A stretch of DNA of 64,000 bases from a virus (taxonomy: Duplodnaviria > Caudoviricetes): positions 96,001 through 160,000 of the IMG/VR virus record IMGVR_UViG_3300046522_000316; one strand, given 5' to 3'. The position numbers and the translations under genes were made by a program. Below are positions 6,932 to 25,097 of the stretch, in pieces. The notes below the pieces were generated by a model. The model made no database searches. It was not told the DNA's origin and was given only the letters and a program-made list of their open reading frames with translations. The stretch's first letter is position 1, and each line of letters opens with the position of its first letter.

Positions 6932-7513
6932 ATGACCGAAGTAGCCGTAGTAAAACTGTCGAAGAACGAAACCGCCGCTGTCAAAGCCGTTGCCGCTGCT
7001 GCCAAAACTCTGGAAGGCCTGAAAGCCGACCTGAAAACCGCGCAGACCGTTGTTCGCTCGAACGCCAAGCTGGCTCTGACCACCGCGCCGAAAGTCGTGA
7101 GCAATCTGCAAAAGAACGTCGGTTCCGTCGTTGAAACTCTGCAACAGGCCGTACTGGCCGCGACCACCGAACTGAACGACGCGAAAACCGCGCTGACCAA
7201 CGTTCGTTCGACCGAAAAAGCAGAAGCCGCGCAGAAAGCAAAAGACGCCAAAGCCAAACAACGCGAAGCCGACAAAGCAGCCGCTGCCAAAAACAAAGCC
7301 GCCAATGCCAAGCCTGCTGCCGCCGCTGTCGTTGCCGCACCGGTCGTGAAAGCTCCGAAAGCAAAAGCTGTTGCTGCCCCGGCTGCTGCCAAAGCTCCGA
7401 AAGCAAAAGCTGCTGCCCCGGTTGCCAAAGCTCCGAAAGTTGCCAAGGCGCCGAAAGCTGCCGCTGTTGTTGCTGCGCCGAAAGCCAAAGCTGCGAAAGC
7501 TGCAAAGGCATAA
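6932..7513 (+). CDS. Histone H1/AlgP-like Ala-Lys-rich basic protein
   Basis: Helical N-terminus, C-terminal KAPKAKA repeats; strong RBS-like context and own terminator. Confidence 0.7.
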   Translation: MTEVAVVKLSKNETAAVKAVAAAAKTLEGLKADLKTAQTVVRSNAKLALTTAPKVVSNLQKNVGSVVETLQQAVLAATTELNDAKTALTNVRSTEKAEAAQKAKDAKAKQREADKAAAAKNKAANAKPAAAAVVAAPVVKAPKAKAVAAPAAAKAPKAKAAAPVAKAPKVAKAPKAAAVVAAPKAKAAKAAKA

Positions 7514-8614: not shown

Positions 8615-10531
8615 TTGGAAATGACTATTCTTAAAGGCCAGACCGTAAACGTTAACCACGGCAAGAAAGGCGTATTCAAAGAGACGGTGAAAATCGTCCT
8701 GAAGAACGGCACCGTTCGCACCGAGGAAGGTTCCGAGTTCAACACCGCCGACATGTACAACAAAGGCAAAGGCAAATTCGTTGACCTGAAAGGCGGCGTC
8801 GTGAAGAAAACCGCCGCTGCTGCCGCTGCCCCAGCTGCAAAAGCTGAACGCCCTGCACCGCCGACCATCACTTTCAAAGAACTGGAAGAGAAAGCGCGCA
8901 AAATCAACGGCATCGAAATCGAAAGCCTGAAGCGCAAAGACGGCATTGTCATTCTGGCCGATGGTTCGTCGGTTGCAATCGGTGACATTTCCCGCAAGGG
9001 CAAAGGTTACGGCGCTGACGTTGTGACCCCTGCGCCGAAAGCTGGCAAGAAACCTGCCGCTGTTAAAGCTGCGACCGAAAAAGCCCCGGTGAAAACTTCC
9101 GGCGTTAAGCCAGCTGCAAAAACTGCTGCCCCGGCAAAAACTGGCGGCGCAGTGAAGAAAGTAAAAGCGGCCCCGGCTGACGAAAACGCATTTGACGAAG
9201 GCGCGCTGTATGGCCCGGCTGGTCAATACGAAACTTCCGACGTTCGCGGCAAGACCATCGACTTCAACGGCGACGACGTGAAAGTGGTTAAAACCTTTTC
9301 GTCCGGTCGTTGCGTTCTGGAAAACGGCGAAGAATTCCAAGCCGACGAAATCCGCAAACGTCACGATGGCCGTTTCTGCGTGTATTCCGATGAATACATC
9401 GACGAACTGAAAGAACTGCACGAACAAGCCAACACCCGTGCGAAGGCAATTCAAAAGGCCAAAGACACGCCGAAGCCTGTAACGTCGCGCAGCTTCAAAA
9501 AGAACGTGACTCAAGTTCTGGTCGGCAAGAAAATGCAAATTGTTGAACGTATCCTGACCACTGGCGTAATCGTCATGGATTCCGGGTTGCGTATTGCAAT
9601 TGCTGACGTTGAACAGCAAGGCGCAAAACTGGTTTACGTCGGTGCTGCATCGACCAACCAGAAAGCCGGTGGCGCATTGCCGAAAACCCGCGAAGTTCCG
9701 CCGTTCGAGAAAAAGATCGTTCGCGTTTCTGAATTCGACGACGACACCGCGCAAGACATTTGCGATTTGCTCGAAGAAAACGTGCGCAAAATCATGGCGG
9801 GCGAATATGACGTTCAACTGGTTTCGTCGTTCGCCGGTCGCGGCACCGAATTCTGCACCGTTGCATTCAGCTTCGCGATTGCCGACGCTGACCCGGCGCG
9901 CATTCAGGAAATGGTTGCACGTCAACGCGCTGAAAACTTCGCGGACGACGAAGGCAGCGACCTCGACCCGCACCAGCTGACTCCGAACGCCGACGACATT
10001 CCTGAAGAGGAAGAGGAAGAGCAGGAAGAGGAAGAAGAACAGGAAGAAGAGGAAGAGCAGGAAGAGGAAGAAGAACAGGAAGAAGAGGAAGAGCAGGAGG
10101 AAGAAGAGGAACAGGAAGAAGAGGAAGAGCAGGAGGAAGAGGAAGAGGAACAAGAAGAATTGGAAGAGGAAGAGCAAGCCGACTTCCCTGAAAACCAAAC
10201 CTTCGCCGCTGCCGAAACTTCTTTCCCTATCGACACCTCGGAACTGGTCGGTGACGCTTCGGCCCGTATGGCGAAAATCGTTCCTACTGCCAAGTATCAA
10301 GGCGCAATGCGCAAAGCCGCTGCTGCGTGGTACGAATCGCAAGATGCGTACACCAATTTCGGTTATGCCATTGAACCGGGTTCGACTATCGAAGACGCAG
10401 GTCAAACCTACCTGTTCATCGGCCTGCGCGGCGATGCGGTCGGCCTGATCAACGTTGCGAGTGAAACCGTTCGTTCGGTGGACTTCGAAAAATTCGTTGA
10501 GATTTGCGAAGCCAACGGCATCGAAATCTAA
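8615..10531 (+). CDS. Large modular protein: four ~35-40 aa beta-type repeats, Ala/Lys linkers, (E5Q)n tract
   Basis: Internal repeats aligned by eye; strong codon bias; GGAG RBS. Confidence 0.8.
   Translation: MEMTILKGQTVNVNHGKKGVFKETVKIVLKNGTVRTEEGSEFNTADMYNKGKGKFVDLKGGVVKKTAAAAAAPAAKAERPAPPTITFKELEEKARKINGIEIESLKRKDGIVILADGSSVAIGDISRKGKGYGADVVTPAPKAGKKPAAVKAATEKAPVKTSGVKPAAKTAAPAKTGGAVKKVKAAPADENAFDEGALYGPAGQYETSDVRGKTIDFNGDDVKVVKTFSSGRCVLENGEEFQADEIRKRHDGRFCVYSDEYIDELKELHEQANTRAKAIQKAKDTPKPVTSRSFKKNVTQVLVGKKMQIVERILTTGVIVMDSGLRIAIADVEQQGAKLVYVGAASTNQKAGGALPKTREVPPFEKKIVRVSEFDDDTAQDICDLLEENVRKIMAGEYDVQLVSSFAGRGTEFCTVAFSFAIADADPARIQEMVARQRAENFADDEGSDLDPHQLTPNADDIPEEEEEEQEEEEEQEEEEEQEEEEEQEEEEEQEEEEEQEEEEEQEEEEEEQEELEEEEQADFPENQTFAAAETSFPIDTSELVGDASARMAKIVPTAKYQGAMRKAAAAWYESQDAYTNFGYAIEPGSTIEDAGQTYLFIGLRGDAVGLINVASETVRSVDFEKFVEICEANGIEI
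10004..10177 (+). repeat. Coding 18-bp tandem repeat (EEEEEQ)n
   Basis: GAAGAGGAAGARGARCAG-like units, about nine copies. Confidence 0.9.
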
Positions 10532-10598: not shown

Positions 10599-11735
10599 AT
10601 GAACGAATTTTTCAGCCGCTTGGTAGGATCTGCACACGTTGCAATCGCTGCCTTTTATCAGAGCCTGTTTTCGCAAGCTCTCAGTACCTCCGCCGATGAA
10701 TTGGCAGACTGGTACAAACTCGATCCGACCGAAGTCGATCTGGAAGACGGCGCAGAAATTTACGCCAAACGTATTTCGCTGCCGATTTGGGATTTGGTGA
10801 ATCCTGATCATGCGGCGGAAATTGCCAGTGACATGATGCTGGAACTCGAAGCCAAGCACGATATGCATTTGTGCAGTTACACCGGCGACGGCGAATTCAT
10901 CGTTTACATCACCAACGAAGAAATCGAACTCGACGCTTTGCGTTTGGCTTTCGACGACCTCGAAGAACTGGAAGAGGAAGAGGAAGAACTCGAAGAACTC
11001 GACGGTTCCGAACTTCAGCAACAACCGGAAAGCGGTCGCGTTCTTTCCATGGTTCCGCGCATCGACCAATCGGCCCCGGCCCATGCTGCGCCAGCCGTTG
11101 AAATCGAAGCGGATTTCCCCGAGGAAGATTTCCCCGAGGAACCGTTGATCGAAGAACCGGCCCCGGTCGCCGCTGTAGCCGCGCCAGCCGAGATTGCAGA
11201 CGCCGATCTGGTAGAGGAAGAACCTTTGCCCGAGGAAACGCCTGTAAACGAAGCACAGGCCGTTGCAGCGCCAACCGAAACCAACGCGCAAGCCGAAGCA
11301 CTGGCGAACGCATTGAATGGCGAACCAGCACAGGCCGTTGAACAGCCCGCGCCAGCACCAGCAGAAACCGAAGCCTCGGCACCGGTTGCAGAAGCCGCAC
11401 CAATCGACGACGTTGTTGATACCGGCCCGGTAAAAGAATCGCCGGAAATCATCGCGGCAATTCACGCGGAAAAAATGCAGCAACTGATGGGCATGTTGCC
11501 GTCTGACACCATGTCTGAAGTTGATGACAATACCGGCGTGCTGTCCCTGATGTACAGTCGTGACGTGAACGGCGAAAATGTGGATTACATCCGCAACATT
11601 CGCCTTGTAAATGAAAACTTCCAAAACATTCGTTATGTGGACGTTTTCTATGTCGAAGACGAAGCGGGTAAAGTGCTGCACCGCACGTCGAGCGTACAGA
11701 GCATTATCCAGCACTTGGATCATCTGAACGCGTAA
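10599..11735 (+). CDS. Acidic Glu/Ala/Pro-rich protein with long disordered centre
   Basis: GAGGT RBS; EEEEEE and EAPA-rich stretch between folded-looking termini. Confidence 0.8.
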   Translation: MNEFFSRLVGSAHVAIAAFYQSLFSQALSTSADELADWYKLDPTEVDLEDGAEIYAKRISLPIWDLVNPDHAAEIASDMMLELEAKHDMHLCSYTGDGEFIVYITNEEIELDALRLAFDDLEELEEEEEELEELDGSELQQQPESGRVLSMVPRIDQSAPAHAAPAVEIEADFPEEDFPEEPLIEEPAPVAAVAAPAEIADADLVEEEPLPEETPVNEAQAVAAPTETNAQAEALANALNGEPAQAVEQPAPAPAETEASAPVAEAAPIDDVVDTGPVKESPEIIAAIHAEKMQQLMGMLPSDTMSEVDDNTGVLSLMYSRDVNGENVDYIRNIRLVNENFQNIRYVDVFYVEDEAGKVLHRTSSVQSIIQHLDHLNA

Positions 11736-14793: not shown

Positions 14794-15351
14794 ATGGCAA
14801 AGCCAGAAAAAACCGTTAAAGCAAAAGCACGCACCAAAGTTTCCCGTCTCGACAAAGCCCTGCGCAAGCTGACCGGCACCAGCGCCAAAACCCCGTTCAG
14901 CATGAAATCCGGCGTGTTCACCGTGACCGGCTTCAGCGTTGTTCCTGCCGAAGTTCCGGGCTACCTGATCGACCGCACCGCGACCCACACCATCTATCGC
15001 CACAAGGCCACCAGCGCCTCGAAGAAAATGGTTGTGTCCGTGTTCGCAAACTCCGACGTTCTGCAACTGCTGGGCGGCAAGGAAGGCGGTAGCGTTACCG
15101 TTCGCCGTCGTTCCGCTTTCACCAGCGCAACCGGCACCCTGAAATTCGACGGCACTTCGGTTATCGTTACCGACACTGACGGCGGTGTTGCCGTGTTCGA
15201 TCTGGCCGCTGGCGATTACGAAATCAAAGCAGCCGATACCGAAGGTTCGCAAACTTCCGGTCGTGGCGTGAAATCGTCTTCCGACGAAGGCAAGAAGAAA
15301 AAGAAAGTCGTCGATATCAAAGAAGGCGGCAAGAAAAAAGCAAAAAAGTAA
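14794..15351 (+). CDS. Basic hypothetical protein with Lys-rich termini
   Basis: Strong codon bias; ends GKKKKK...GGKKKAKK. Confidence 0.75.
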   Translation: MAKPEKTVKAKARTKVSRLDKALRKLTGTSAKTPFSMKSGVFTVTGFSVVPAEVPGYLIDRTATHTIYRHKATSASKKMVVSVFANSDVLQLLGGKEGGSVTVRRRSAFTSATGTLKFDGTSVIVTDTDGGVAVFDLAAGDYEIKAADTEGSQTSGRGVKSSSDEGKKKKKVVDIKEGGKKKAKK

Positions 15352-15494
15352 CTAACACCCGGTACATGGGCGACCTCGACTGAGCGCGCCCGTGACCACC
15401 TCGCAGTAAACTGTAAATACACTGTACAAGATGTGCAGTGCAGAAAACTGTAAATCTCTTTCAGCAACATCAATCAATATATCTGGAGTTATTC

Positions 15495-16001
15495 ATGGCT
15501 AAGCCAGCACCAAAGAAATCCGCCGCCAAATCCAAGCCAGCCCCGAAGAAAGCCGGCAAGAAAAAATCGGCTCCGGAAATCACCGCTGACGATCTGAACC
15601 TGATCAACATGGATGTGCTGTCGCAAATCCTGATCGCGTTCCAAGACAAAGGCTTCGAAACCATCGAAGACGTGATCGGCGCCGTGCAGCAACTGATCGA
15701 AAGCGAAGAGGAAGAGGAAGAAGAGGAAGAAGAGGAAGAAGAGGAAGAGGAAGAAGAGGAAGAGGAAGAGGAAGAGGAAGAGGAAGAAGAGGAAGAGGAA
15801 GAGGAAGAAGAGGAAGAGGAAGAGGAAGAGGAAGAAGAGGAAGAGGAAGAAGAGGAAGAGGAAGAGGAAGAGGAAGAGGAAGAAGAGGAAGAGGAAGAAG
15901 AGGAAGAAGAGGAAGAGGAAGAGGAAGAGGAAGAGGAAGAGGAAGAGGAAGAGGAAGAGGAAGAGGAAGAGGAAGAAGAGGAAGAGGAAGACGACGAATA
16001 A
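15495..16001 (+). CDS. Basic-head / poly-glutamate protein (95 consecutive Glu)
   Basis: GGAG RBS, ATG 15495; Glu codons 15705-15989; two upstream promoter-like motifs and downstream terminator. Confidence 0.8.
   Translation: MAKPAPKKSAAKSKPAPKKAGKKKSAPEITADDLNLINMDVLSQILIAFQDKGFETIEDVIGAVQQLIESEEEEEEEEEEEEEEEEEEEEEEEEEEEEEEEEEEEEEEEEEEEEEEEEEEEEEEEEEEEEEEEEEEEEEEEEEEEEEEEEEEEEEEEEEEEEEEEDDE
15705..15989 (+). repeat. GAA/GAG homopurine coding repeat
   Basis: 285 nt made only of GAA and GAG codons. Confidence 0.95.
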
Positions 16002-16065: not shown

Positions 16066-16097
16066 AAGAAACCCGGTAAAATCGCCGGGTTTCTTTT
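16066..16097 (+). terminator. Rho-independent terminator
   Basis: AAGAAACCCGG / CCGGGTTTCTT stem with T-rich tail. Confidence 0.75.
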
Positions 16098-16141: not shown

Positions 16142-16747
16142 ATGGCTAAGAACGATCTGACCATTAACGGCAAATCCGAAATCGGTCGTCTGCGCAAGCA
16201 GCAGCGCGCTCTGGAACAATCCAGCAAAGCGCAAGAAAAAGCACTGGAAGTAACCAACGGCCAAGCAACCGAAGTTGCTGAGCAAATCGCTACCCTCGAA
16301 GCTCAACTGAGCGGCGAGCCGGTCAAAGCTGCCAAAGGCGGCAAGAAAGCCAAGGGCGACGACAAGCCAGCCAAAGGCGGCAAGAAAGCCAAGGCCGAAG
16401 AAAAGCCTGCCAAGAAATCCAAAAAAGACGCCGAAGAAAAACCGGCCAAAGGCGGCAAGAAAGCCAAAGCTGAAGACGTGAAGCCTGCCAAGAAGTCGAA
16501 GAAAGCTGACAAGGAAGACGCGGCCCCGGCCAAGAAATCCAAGAAAGCCGACAAAGACGAAGCTCCGGCCAAGAAGTCCAAAAAGGCTTCGAAAGAAGTA
16601 GAAGCGCCGAAGAAAAAGAAAAAATCCAAGGACGTTGAAACCGACGCTCCGAAGAAAAAGAAAAAGTCGAAAGACGCTGACGCCAAGAAAGTGAAAAAAG
16701 GCGACAAGAAAAAGAAATCCAAAGACTTCGACGAATTCGAAGACTAA
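16142..16747 (+). CDS. Histone-like Lys-rich protein with coiled-coil N-terminus
   Basis: KPAKGGKKAKA and KPAKKSKKA repeats; APKKKKKSKD twice. Confidence 0.75.
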   Translation: MAKNDLTINGKSEIGRLRKQQRALEQSSKAQEKALEVTNGQATEVAEQIATLEAQLSGEPVKAAKGGKKAKGDDKPAKGGKKAKAEEKPAKKSKKDAEEKPAKGGKKAKAEDVKPAKKSKKADKEDAAPAKKSKKADKDEAPAKKSKKASKEVEAPKKKKKSKDVETDAPKKKKKSKDADAKKVKKGDKKKKSKDFDEFED

Positions 16748-23846: not shown

Positions 23847-25097
23847 ATGGCGACCGCCGTTTTTAAAGGCATGGGCAGCATCCGCACCAACAGTGGCAAG
23901 GGTGATTCGCTCCGCTTGGACGAAGTTGTTGATATCATCCAGTGGCCGAAAAACAAATATTTCCTGTTCCGCATTTTGCCGATCATGCCGCTGCAAGTGC
24001 GTCAGGTCTGGATCAAACTGTGGGCCGGTGGCAAGGGCAAAGAAAAACGCGAAGTGAACATTCCGCGTTACGCTATCGACTTCGATCCGAACGATCCGGA
24101 AACCCCGAAAAAAGGCGTGAAGTGCCCGTACATGGCGCTGGCCGACAAGTTCAAAGGCCAGAAAGAAAAGCCGGTGCGTGCGTCCGACTTCTGGTTGTTC
24201 AACGTGATCGACCGCGACATGCAGGAAGAAGGCCCGCCGCGTAAAGCGTCGAAGCCAACCAAGGAAGAAAAGAATTCCGGTTTCAAGGATATCAATTCTG
24301 AAACTTGGACTCCGGTTCGCGTTGCGCGTCTGACCATGACTTCGATCAACCGACTGCAAGAACTGTCGGAAGAAAACAAAATCAAGTCGAAGAAATCCGG
24401 CAAAACCGCGCAGTACGACGTATCCGATGCGAAGTATGGTTTCGACACCAAACTGAAATTCAAACCGGACGCAGCGGGCACCGACAAATACACCATCGAC
24501 AAAGCGGACGGCCCTACCCCGCTGAGCGACGAAGAGCAAGGCTATCTGACGTGGAACCTCACTGAAGAACTTCTGGACGCCACCGGTCGCATGACCGAAA
24601 AGGCTGCGAAGGAAGACGTTAAGCGTATGGAAATCATCGGCGGCGAAGAACTCGACGATGATGACGAAGACGAAGACGAAAAGCCGAAGAAAAAGAAAGG
24701 CAAATCCACTTCGCTCGACGACGATGACGACGAAGACGAAAAGCCGAAGAAAAAGAAAAAGAAATCTTCCATCGACGATGACGATGATGAAGACGAAAAA
24801 CCGAAAAAGAAAAAGAAGTCCAAGTCCATCGACGACGATGACGACGAAGACGAAAAGCCGAAGAAAAAGAAAAAGTCTTCGGACAAAGACGCCAAGTCTT
24901 CCAAGGTGAAAAAGAAGTCGAAGTCGGACGACGATGACGACGAAAAGCCGAAGAAGAAAAAGAAGGCCAAGGAAGAAGAAGCTCCGAAGAAAAAGAAAAA
25001 ATCTTCGGACAAGGACGAGAAAGGCGGCGCCAAAAAGAAAGTGAAGAAAGACGCCAAGAAAGGCAGCGGCAAGAAAAAGAACGCGTGGGATGACTAA
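23847..25097 (+). CDS. Probable ssDNA-binding protein (gp32-like) with charge-block repeat tail
   Basis: LFRILP...CP...FWLFNVIDR core; adjacent to recA; DDDDEDEKPKKKKK repeats. Confidence 0.5.
   Translation: MATAVFKGMGSIRTNSGKGDSLRLDEVVDIIQWPKNKYFLFRILPIMPLQVRQVWIKLWAGGKGKEKREVNIPRYAIDFDPNDPETPKKGVKCPYMALADKFKGQKEKPVRASDFWLFNVIDRDMQEEGPPRKASKPTKEEKNSGFKDINSETWTPVRVARLTMTSINRLQELSEENKIKSKKSGKTAQYDVSDAKYGFDTKLKFKPDAAGTDKYTIDKADGPTPLSDEEQGYLTWNLTEELLDATGRMTEKAAKEDVKRMEIIGGEELDDDDEDEDEKPKKKKGKSTSLDDDDDEDEKPKKKKKKSSIDDDDDEDEKPKKKKKSKSIDDDDDEDEKPKKKKKSSDKDAKSSKVKKKSKSDDDDDEKPKKKKKAKEEEAPKKKKKSSDKDEKGGAKKKVKKDAKKGSGKKKNAWDD
24652..25000 (+). repeat. Coding repeat of alternating acidic and basic blocks
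   Basis: GACGATGACGACGAAGACGAAAAGCCGAAGAAAAAG-like unit, five to six copies. Confidence 0.85.

Follow-up and report, generated by a model that had tools for sequence, protein, structure and literature searches.

The window, by which we mean the whole 64,000-nucleotide stretch of viral DNA that was analysed (positions 96,001 to 160,000 of the IMG/VR record IMGVR_UViG_3300046522_000316), carries on its + strand a gene for a strongly polyacidic protein. Translated and counted for charge, 15495-16001 gives 168 residues with a net charge of -96, and all of the last 98 residues are acidic (95 Glu followed by DDE). The gene is the middle member of a trio, the other two products being basic, and the following features can be placed in this region:

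14794-15351, + strand: upstream member of the trio, 185 residues, net charge +18 (phrog_22271), with a basic N-terminus, a beta-rich core and a Lys-rich tail
15408-15418, + strand: distal copy of the promoter motif AAACTGTAAAT, matching the 'putative middle/late promoter' of Lu11
15445-15455, + strand: proximal copy of the promoter motif AAACTGTAAAT, 47 nt ahead of the ATG
15485-15488, + strand: Shine-Dalgarno sequence GGAG, 6 nt ahead of the ATG
15495-16001, + strand: coding sequence of the polyacidic protein (P0001), from translation; orthologues occupy the same slot
15495-15569, + strand: Lys-rich head, residues 1-25, net charge +10, predicted to be disordered
15570-15704, + strand: small acidic helical domain, residues 26-70, net charge -8, with invariant L34, L36, N38 and E55, clade-restricted
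15705-15989, + strand: tract of 95 Glu codons, residues 71-165, with 54 GAA and 41 GAG (count as assembled)
15990-16001, + strand: C-terminal DDE and stop codon, an acidic ending found again in most orthologues
16066-16095, + strand: intrinsic terminator hairpin with a U-rich 3' side, dG -19.2 kcal/mol, z -5.7
16142-16747, + strand: downstream member of the trio, 201 residues, net charge +28 (phrog_36478), with an N-terminal coiled coil, Lys-rich repeats and the tip DFDEFED

An earlier, sequence-only reading had described a Lys-rich N-terminus, a short helical segment, 95 Glu codons at 15705-15989 and a DDE ending, all of which the translation bears out, with the helices recovered by AlphaFold2. 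It had also called the mixing of GAA and GAG irregular, and this is correct, since Tandem Repeats Finder resolves the tract as an imperfect hexanucleotide repeat (period 6, 86% matches, with a higher order of 48 nt). Within the tract two GAG codons are never adjacent, and GAG makes up 43% of the Glu codons versus 15% in the 46 other long + strand open reading frames of the window. To our knowledge, a homopolymeric acidic tail of ~100 residues is very unusual for a bacterial virus. Because the repeat contains no stop codons, open reading frames also span it on the minus strand and in shifted frames (poly-Leu/Phe, poly-Pro/Leu and poly-Lys/Arg); these are by-products of the repeat, and the Glu frame alone has conserved start signals, an N-terminal domain and a stop right behind the tract. 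The +1 frame of 15705-15989 is an open poly(Lys/Arg) frame that closes a few codons past the tract, such that a frameshift there would give a chimera of a Glu block and a Lys-Arg block, of whose use we saw no sign.

The window comes from a giant Pseudomonas phage of soil; its DNA is ~75% identical to that of the Pseudomonas jumbo phages HRDY3 and Lu11, and its flanks are present in soil, rhizosphere, plant and food metagenomes of 13 studies. Orthologues of the polyacidic protein lie in the same position in Lu11 (Lu11_0161, AFH14695.1), HRDY3 (XDJ15127.1) and PaBG (gp125, AGS82009.1), all annotated as hypothetical proteins, and tblastn with the window protein reached E 7e-12 in HRDY3 and E 3e-6 in Lu11. 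These orthologues share the slot, the head, the helical domain, the acidic tail and the double promoter with the window. Given its helical domain behind a Lys-rich head, its uninterrupted acidic tail (~60-110 residues in the Lu11_0161/PaBG gp125 family) and its slot between Lys-tailed genes, the window protein belongs by sequence to an unnamed family made up of these hypothetical proteins. The database remark on PaBG gp125, 'similar to Utp1...', can most likely be put down to low-complexity similarity. We found no paper on the function of this family, nor any functional or proteomic statement about it, in the literature that we searched on PaBG, on Dickeya phages and on comparative genomics and in reviews of jumbo phages.

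Ten further IMG/VR contigs were found via the upstream gene, and all of them carry the polyacidic gene, as eight complete copies and two that end within the tract. The upstream gene family reaches 59 phage records from Erwinia, Dickeya and Yersinia; in the five jumbo-phage loci of these hosts that we opened, the slot holds a protein of ~260 residues (phrog_30618, with members Y3_323, JA29_309, YOLOSWAG_321 and fHeYen902_225) built from three helical modules, Lys-rich linkers and two Asp/Glu tracts. It resembles the window protein in its slot between homologous flanking genes, in its similar charge and in the TGTAAA cores upstream, but differs in its length, its three modules and its two tracts, and the folded parts show no similarity by hmmscan or hhalign (no PHROG match for the window protein; hhalign probability of 0.6% between the two family alignments, A3 and A4), so that only slot and charge are common to the two proteins. 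Taken over the window, Lu11, HRDY3, PaBG, the eight IMG/VR contigs and the enterobacterial jumbo phages, the order of basic-tailed protein, polyacidic protein and Lys-rich coiled-coil protein is the same in 17 of 17 loci. The trio sits in a replication/recombination gene block in the loci examined; in HRDY3 and Lu11 this block lies between DNA polymerase I and the genes for a sigma factor, SSB and RecA. The sigma factor of the window matches Sigma70 region 2, and the window contains no tRNA gene.

The polyacidic gene forms an expression unit of its own, since it combines upstream TGTAAA cores with a GGAG and a strong terminator. The ribosome binding site and the terminator that had been proposed before are both found (15485-15488 and 16066-16095), and so are the two upstream motifs, except that the word common to them is the 11-mer AAACTGTAAAT and not quite the 12-mer that had been described. 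Measured from the CTGTAAA core, the two copies lie 84 and 47 nt from the ATG. The window contains 12 copies of the 10-nt core AACTGTAAAT, always on the + strand, where 0.12 would be expected; for CTGTAAA the counts are 19 on the + strand and one on the - strand. In the GenBank record of Lu11 the motif is labelled 'putative middle/late promoter' and stands in two copies ahead of the orthologue; 36 copies are found in that genome versus none for a reversed control pattern. Annotated Lu11 copies lie directly 5' of genes for DNA polymerase I/exonuclease, DNA polymerase III and an endonuclease, with another 5' of an operon whose last gene encodes the tail sheath, and in the window the motif is also present ahead of an SSB-like gene at 23847. 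Each of the 17 loci has one to four TGTAAA cores ahead of the acidic gene (37 in total) and none in the gap ahead of the Lys-rich gene (17 gaps). This difference suggests that the two genes are under different control, or that the Lys-rich gene needs read-through of the terminator. The GGAG is kept in 13 of 13 Pseudomonas-type loci and is replaced by AGGA in the enterobacterial-type loci, and the terminator hairpins of Lu11 and of the metagenomic locus L005 have the stem of the window with different loops. The polyacidic protein is real, and it is probably well expressed or abundant.

Five more CTGTAAA copies, all on the + strand (13393, 13744, 14040, 14409 and 14664, a span of 1.3 kb), sit inside or just behind the two genes upstream of the trio, and this cluster may represent internal promoters feeding the charged-protein genes. 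For the poly-Glu gene no transcript or proteome record was found. A soil metatranscriptome contig of 235 nt (X18) aligns to the Lys-rich gene at 16372-16609 with ~93% similarity, a weak hint that this gene is transcribed in soil in a relative, DNA carry-over being another explanation; the count of one such contig for the Lys-rich gene versus none for the poly-Glu gene is too weak to use.

A tract of this kind raises the concern of an assembly artefact, which the sequence-only reading had itself named. The existence and the approximate size of the tail are secure, being found at 17 loci that include cultured phages with non-repetitive tails, and the tail is not a one-off artefact because the same gene is found in Lu11, HRDY3, PaBG, the eight contigs and the enterobacterial jumbo phages. 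The exact count of 95 is not confirmed, as contigs built from short reads break off within it: in three other studies the Logan contigs end ~41 nt into the tract from both edges, the repeat being skipped by the tool, and two IMG/VR contigs (L007 and L009, one of them 314 kb long) end within the homologous tract, at the start of a pure GAAGAG run. For that related phage, each of the first 73-76 tract codons is identical in three separate assemblies, and the irregular part of the tract is therefore assembled reproducibly, while the repeat is a recurrent assembly breakpoint. Because of this breakpoint, protein catalogues probably lack the polyacidic gene or list it in truncated form, and the family is possibly under-represented in protein sets for the same reason.

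Among the 12 Pseudomonas-type loci the tails measure 98, 109, 99, 94, 105, 58, 100, 94, 108, 83, 104 and 84 residues, and ten of them are without any non-acidic residue. The tails of Lu11 and PaBG (99 and 94 residues, the latter with two non-acidic residues) are non-repetitive mixtures of Asp and Glu, as opposed to the almost pure Glu of the window and HRDY3; the tail of a metagenomic relative (L013) is mixed as well, and the rest of the 12 are almost pure Glu. The net charge of the polyacidic protein averages -94.9 (SD 6.8) over eight cultured phages, with a median of -96 over the 17 loci; it ranges from -93 to -107 in the Lu11, HRDY3 and PaBG orthologues and from -84 to -100 in the phrog_30618 proteins. 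It is thus held near -95 while the length (125-266 residues), the composition (Glu or Glu/Asp) and the folded modules vary. Between the window and L005, whose flanking proteins are 91% identical, the tails have 98 and 105 residues and the longest common block of codons is 23; a second pair of close relatives (L011 and L012) has strongly different codon patterns, with tails of 108 and 83 residues. As codon patterns diverge between close relatives while lengths stay similar, selection acts on the charged polypeptide and not on the DNA repeat; the pattern indicates a tract that turns over quickly, in the manner of slippage, with its length and charge constrained.

Behind the disordered head, AlphaFold2 (run on a nine-sequence alignment) predicts helices at residues 31-36, 39-50 and 57-76 with a mean pLDDT of 74; the last of them extends into the tail, and the model of residues 1-77 is all-helical. 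L34, L36, N38 and E55 are invariant across the family alignments, in the pattern L-x-L-x-N ... G-F-E-T. Database searches with this domain gave next to nothing: neither the whole protein nor the head has a Pfam match at E<=0.1, nor do nine aligned members at E<=10, and PHROGs holds no match to either the whole protein or the head. A profile search of the PDB yielded chance-level matches only, and Foldseek with the head model against PDB and BFVD nothing below E ~1.6. The best VIA-align hits, at Z 3.0-3.6 and so within noise, are to the two helices of ribbon-helix-helix proteins, with no sequence-profile match. A word-indexed homologue search returned 0 matches, the ESM Atlas no usable neighbour, and exact-sequence look-ups found nothing on record. 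An exhaustive search with the domain profile through 1.84 billion representatives brought up one true relative (truncated, 80 residues) and one spurious repeat protein, which indicates that the helical domain is restricted to the clade of the window. We do not think that the modelled domain binds DNA, because of its acidic character and of the Glu that is invariant at the turn between helices; an identity as SAP/HeH or ribbon-helix-helix is unproven, given the best Z of 3.6, the missing profile match and this acidity.

We propose that the protein acts as a polyanionic partner, and as a competitor of DNA, for the Lys-rich proteins of the phage itself, by analogy with prothymosin-alpha and histone H1, a reading to which we assign a probability of roughly 45%. 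The anatomy of the protein, its expression signals, the kept slot and net charge and the promoter motif in common with replication genes are established by the sequences; the disorder of the tail, its binding to Lys-rich proteins and its biological purpose we infer as follows. With ~100 charges on a small handle, the protein would compete with DNA electrostatically: its Glu tail, being disordered, would bind the Lys-rich disordered regions of the phage's DNA-coating proteins. The products of the two flanking genes would be its first clients, and the A/K-rich protein encoded at 6932 and the Lys-tailed replication enzymes probable further ones; these clients would be kept soluble, exchange faster on DNA, or be stripped off it, for instance ahead of packaging. 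The reading is favoured by the kept slot, the charge near -95, the promoters of its own, the motif common with replication genes and the many candidate polycationic clients in the window, several of whose proteins (including the SSB-like and helicase-like ones) have Lys-rich segments. The tie to the adjacent Lys-rich protein (16142), which had been proposed from the window alone, gains good support from the comparison, as 17 of 17 loci keep the polyacidic gene between a basic-tailed and a Lys-rich protein, while the tie to the 6932 protein, proposed at the same time, is drawn solely from charge (net +24). Against the reading stand the charge mismatch between the polyanion and its flanking partners (-96 versus +28 and +18) and the acidic nature of the conserved helical domain itself. 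As the Lys-rich gene has no promoter motif, the pair need not be co-produced.

Prothymosin-alpha and H1 resemble the proposed pair as a disordered polyanion and a Lys-rich disordered DNA-binding protein that would likewise compete with DNA and exchange fast. Prothymosin-alpha has a net charge of roughly -44. The window protein has about twice that charge, and differs further in its near-homopolymeric tail, its basic head, its folded handle and its being phage-encoded; there is no sequence relationship, Pfam showing no homology to prothymosin or parathymosin (E<=0.1 for the whole protein and head, E<=10 for the nine members). Nucleoplasmin, a pentameric beta-sandwich core with acidic tracts, was ruled out as a model, residues 1-77 being modelled as all-helical and having no Pfam match. 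Disordered polyanion-polycation pairs bind very tightly yet dynamically, and prothymosin-alpha speeds the release of H1 from nucleosomes (PMC7661507; bioRxiv 10.1101/2020.04.17.046243). Acidic runs destabilise translating bacterial ribosomes, most of all near the N-terminus, an effect that is counteracted by a nascent chain filling the exit tunnel (bioRxiv 10.1101/2021.02.02.429294), so that 95 Glu codons need not give a high output. In 17 of 17 loci the first acidic run is preceded by at least ~55 other residues, a late start that fits this exit-tunnel rule.

A polyanion of 100 residues would bind to whatever polycation it meets, so in physical terms a host target is just as possible, and the tail might be a DNA-mimicking decoy that soaks up host nucleoid proteins (HU, MvaT/H-NS-like, AlgP-like) or DNA-sensing defence proteins. 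Its high negative charge density, the tolerance of either Asp or Glu and the maintenance of the family in phages of different hosts speak for such a role, which we nevertheless regard as doubtful: the gene bears a motif found before replication genes and not an obvious early signal, it stands inside the replication block and always between phage-encoded polycations, which are a sufficient target, and it has no match in Pfam, known DNA-mimic families included. Ocr (T7 gp0.3) and Arn (T4) are likewise strongly acidic phage proteins that imitate the charge of DNA. They are folded, with spaced carboxylates, and are encoded by early genes; the window protein, by comparison, has a homopolymeric tail and a motif seen before replication genes. 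With no Pfam match and a homopolymeric acidic part, we rejected an assignment to the folded phage DNA mimics (Ocr, ArdA, Arn). HMGB1, T4 gp32, T7 gp2.5 and bacterial SSB have acidic tails that mimic DNA, compete for basic surfaces and regulate the binding of partners, and under the proposed reading the window protein would work in a similar way to those of HMGB1, gp32 and SSB. These tails comprise ~10-50 residues on a recognised DNA-binding fold, whereas our searches brought up no DNA-binding domain in the window protein, whose folded part is acidic. From sequence, a chaperone of the phage's own polycations and a decoy for host DNA-binding proteins cannot yet be separated.

The protein could also, though we think it unlikely, be the fixed-valence (~-95) polyanionic scaffold of a charge-coded compartment, either a condensate in which a replication zone forms as a complex coacervate or a chromatin-like state of the phage DNA; its partners would be the flanking Lys-rich proteins and the Lys-tailed replication enzymes of the phage, whose release from DNA it would also time. 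The many window proteins with Lys-rich segments, the further acidic proteins, the fixed valence and the separate strong promoter would fit such a scaffold, but DNA is already the dominant polyanion of the cell, and a big net charge on one component opposes coacervation unless the polycations are in excess.

A capsid-internal or scaffolding role is quite improbable. The tail would then occupy the inside of the prohead until DNA entry expels or cleaves it, or would be packaged bound to the Lys-rich proteins. Such a role would agree with the 'middle/late' label of the Lu11 motif and the copy 5' of the operon ending in the tail sheath, and A-P-E at residues 26-28 resembles S/A/G-X-E, the pattern of prohead protease sites in phiKZ-like phages; the putative cleavage Glu, however, is Gln in HRDY3 and in most metagenomic orthologues. 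PaBG virion proteins are proteolytically processed (PMC7412058), which we count in favour. The polyacidic protein is not one of the 14 virion proteins of PaBG, but it would probably go unseen with Coomassie staining and trypsin; its gene lies in the replication block and not among the head genes, and a polyanion in a DNA-filled head would be an added electrostatic cost. That the protein serves as a cation buffer, its ~100 carboxylates per molecule sequestering Mg2+ or polyamines and so tuning DNA condensation, packaging or host translation, has physical plausibility and a hint at polyamine handling in the annotation of Lu11, and we give it very little credence, as it leaves the conserved helical domain, the basic head and the fixed slot between Lys-rich proteins unexplained. 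A functionless expansion of a slippage-prone GAA/GAG microsatellite or an assembly artefact, for which one could cite the hexanucleotide-type repeat with its quickly changing pattern, the contigs that break within it and a metagenomic copy of 58 acidic residues only, is barely tenable against the conservation of frame, start signals, N-terminal domain and stop right after the tract, the similar-length non-repeat tails of Lu11, PaBG and the enterobacterial phages, and the near absence of non-acidic residues from the Pseudomonas-type tails.

What is new here is the pure poly-Glu variant, the finding that net charge stays constant between architectures that are not homologous, the conserved pair of promoters ahead of the acidic gene with none ahead of the Lys-rich gene, the turnover of the codon pattern and the limits on tract length. 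A charge near -95 is kept in jumbo phages of Pseudomonas, Erwinia, Dickeya and Yersinia though almost everything else changes and acidic runs are risky for ribosomes. Under the proposed role as a polyanionic partner of phage Lys-rich proteins, this would point to an undescribed electrostatic handling of DNA-coating proteins in phages, akin to that of H1 and prothymosin-alpha in eukaryotes; the scaffold, if real, would parallel the proteinaceous nucleus of jumbo phages by electrostatic means and with protein alone. Lu11, HRDY3, PaBG and Y3 can be cultured, which makes the idea directly testable, and the tail would lend itself to studies of polyelectrolyte complexes between proteins and of how acidic runs are translated.

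Over the 17 loci the flanking proteins have net charges of +11 to +18 upstream and of +19 to +31 for the coiled-coil protein downstream. The upstream protein gave a model of moderate quality (pLDDT 61) with beta-strands over residues 40-147 (core pLDDT ~78); its core has weak, non-significant matches to Hfq/Sm-like and SH3-like small barrels and to the BirA C-terminal domain (Z <= 5.8). At its C-terminus the Lys-rich coiled-coil protein always has a short acidic-aromatic tip (DFDEFED, EYDDFE, DYDFED or DDFEFEME in the window and L001-L018), which is SSB-like in its resemblance to the tips by which SSB and T7 gp2.5 bind other proteins at their C-termini. In the polyacidic proteins of the enterobacterial phages, an invariant Phe stands within the last acidic tract (EDFDDEDE).

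Other strongly charged proteins are encoded nearby. The A/K-rich, H1-like protein at 6932-7513 (193 residues, net charge +24) has no Pfam match, and the motif CTGTAAAT lies 246 nt upstream of it. A 636-residue protein with a net charge of -53 (8621-10531) combines a Lys/Ala/Pro-rich linker with an (EEEEEQ)x8 tract and is a second, different acidic-repeat protein of this block; adjacent to it lies a 378-residue acidic protein with a net charge of -68 (10599-11735). In Lu11, 222038-223426 of JQ768459.1 (L019) is annotated as a putative glutathionylspermidine synthase, and a putative polyphosphate kinase is annotated ~4 kb upstream of the trio; together, these two annotations hint at polyion handling.
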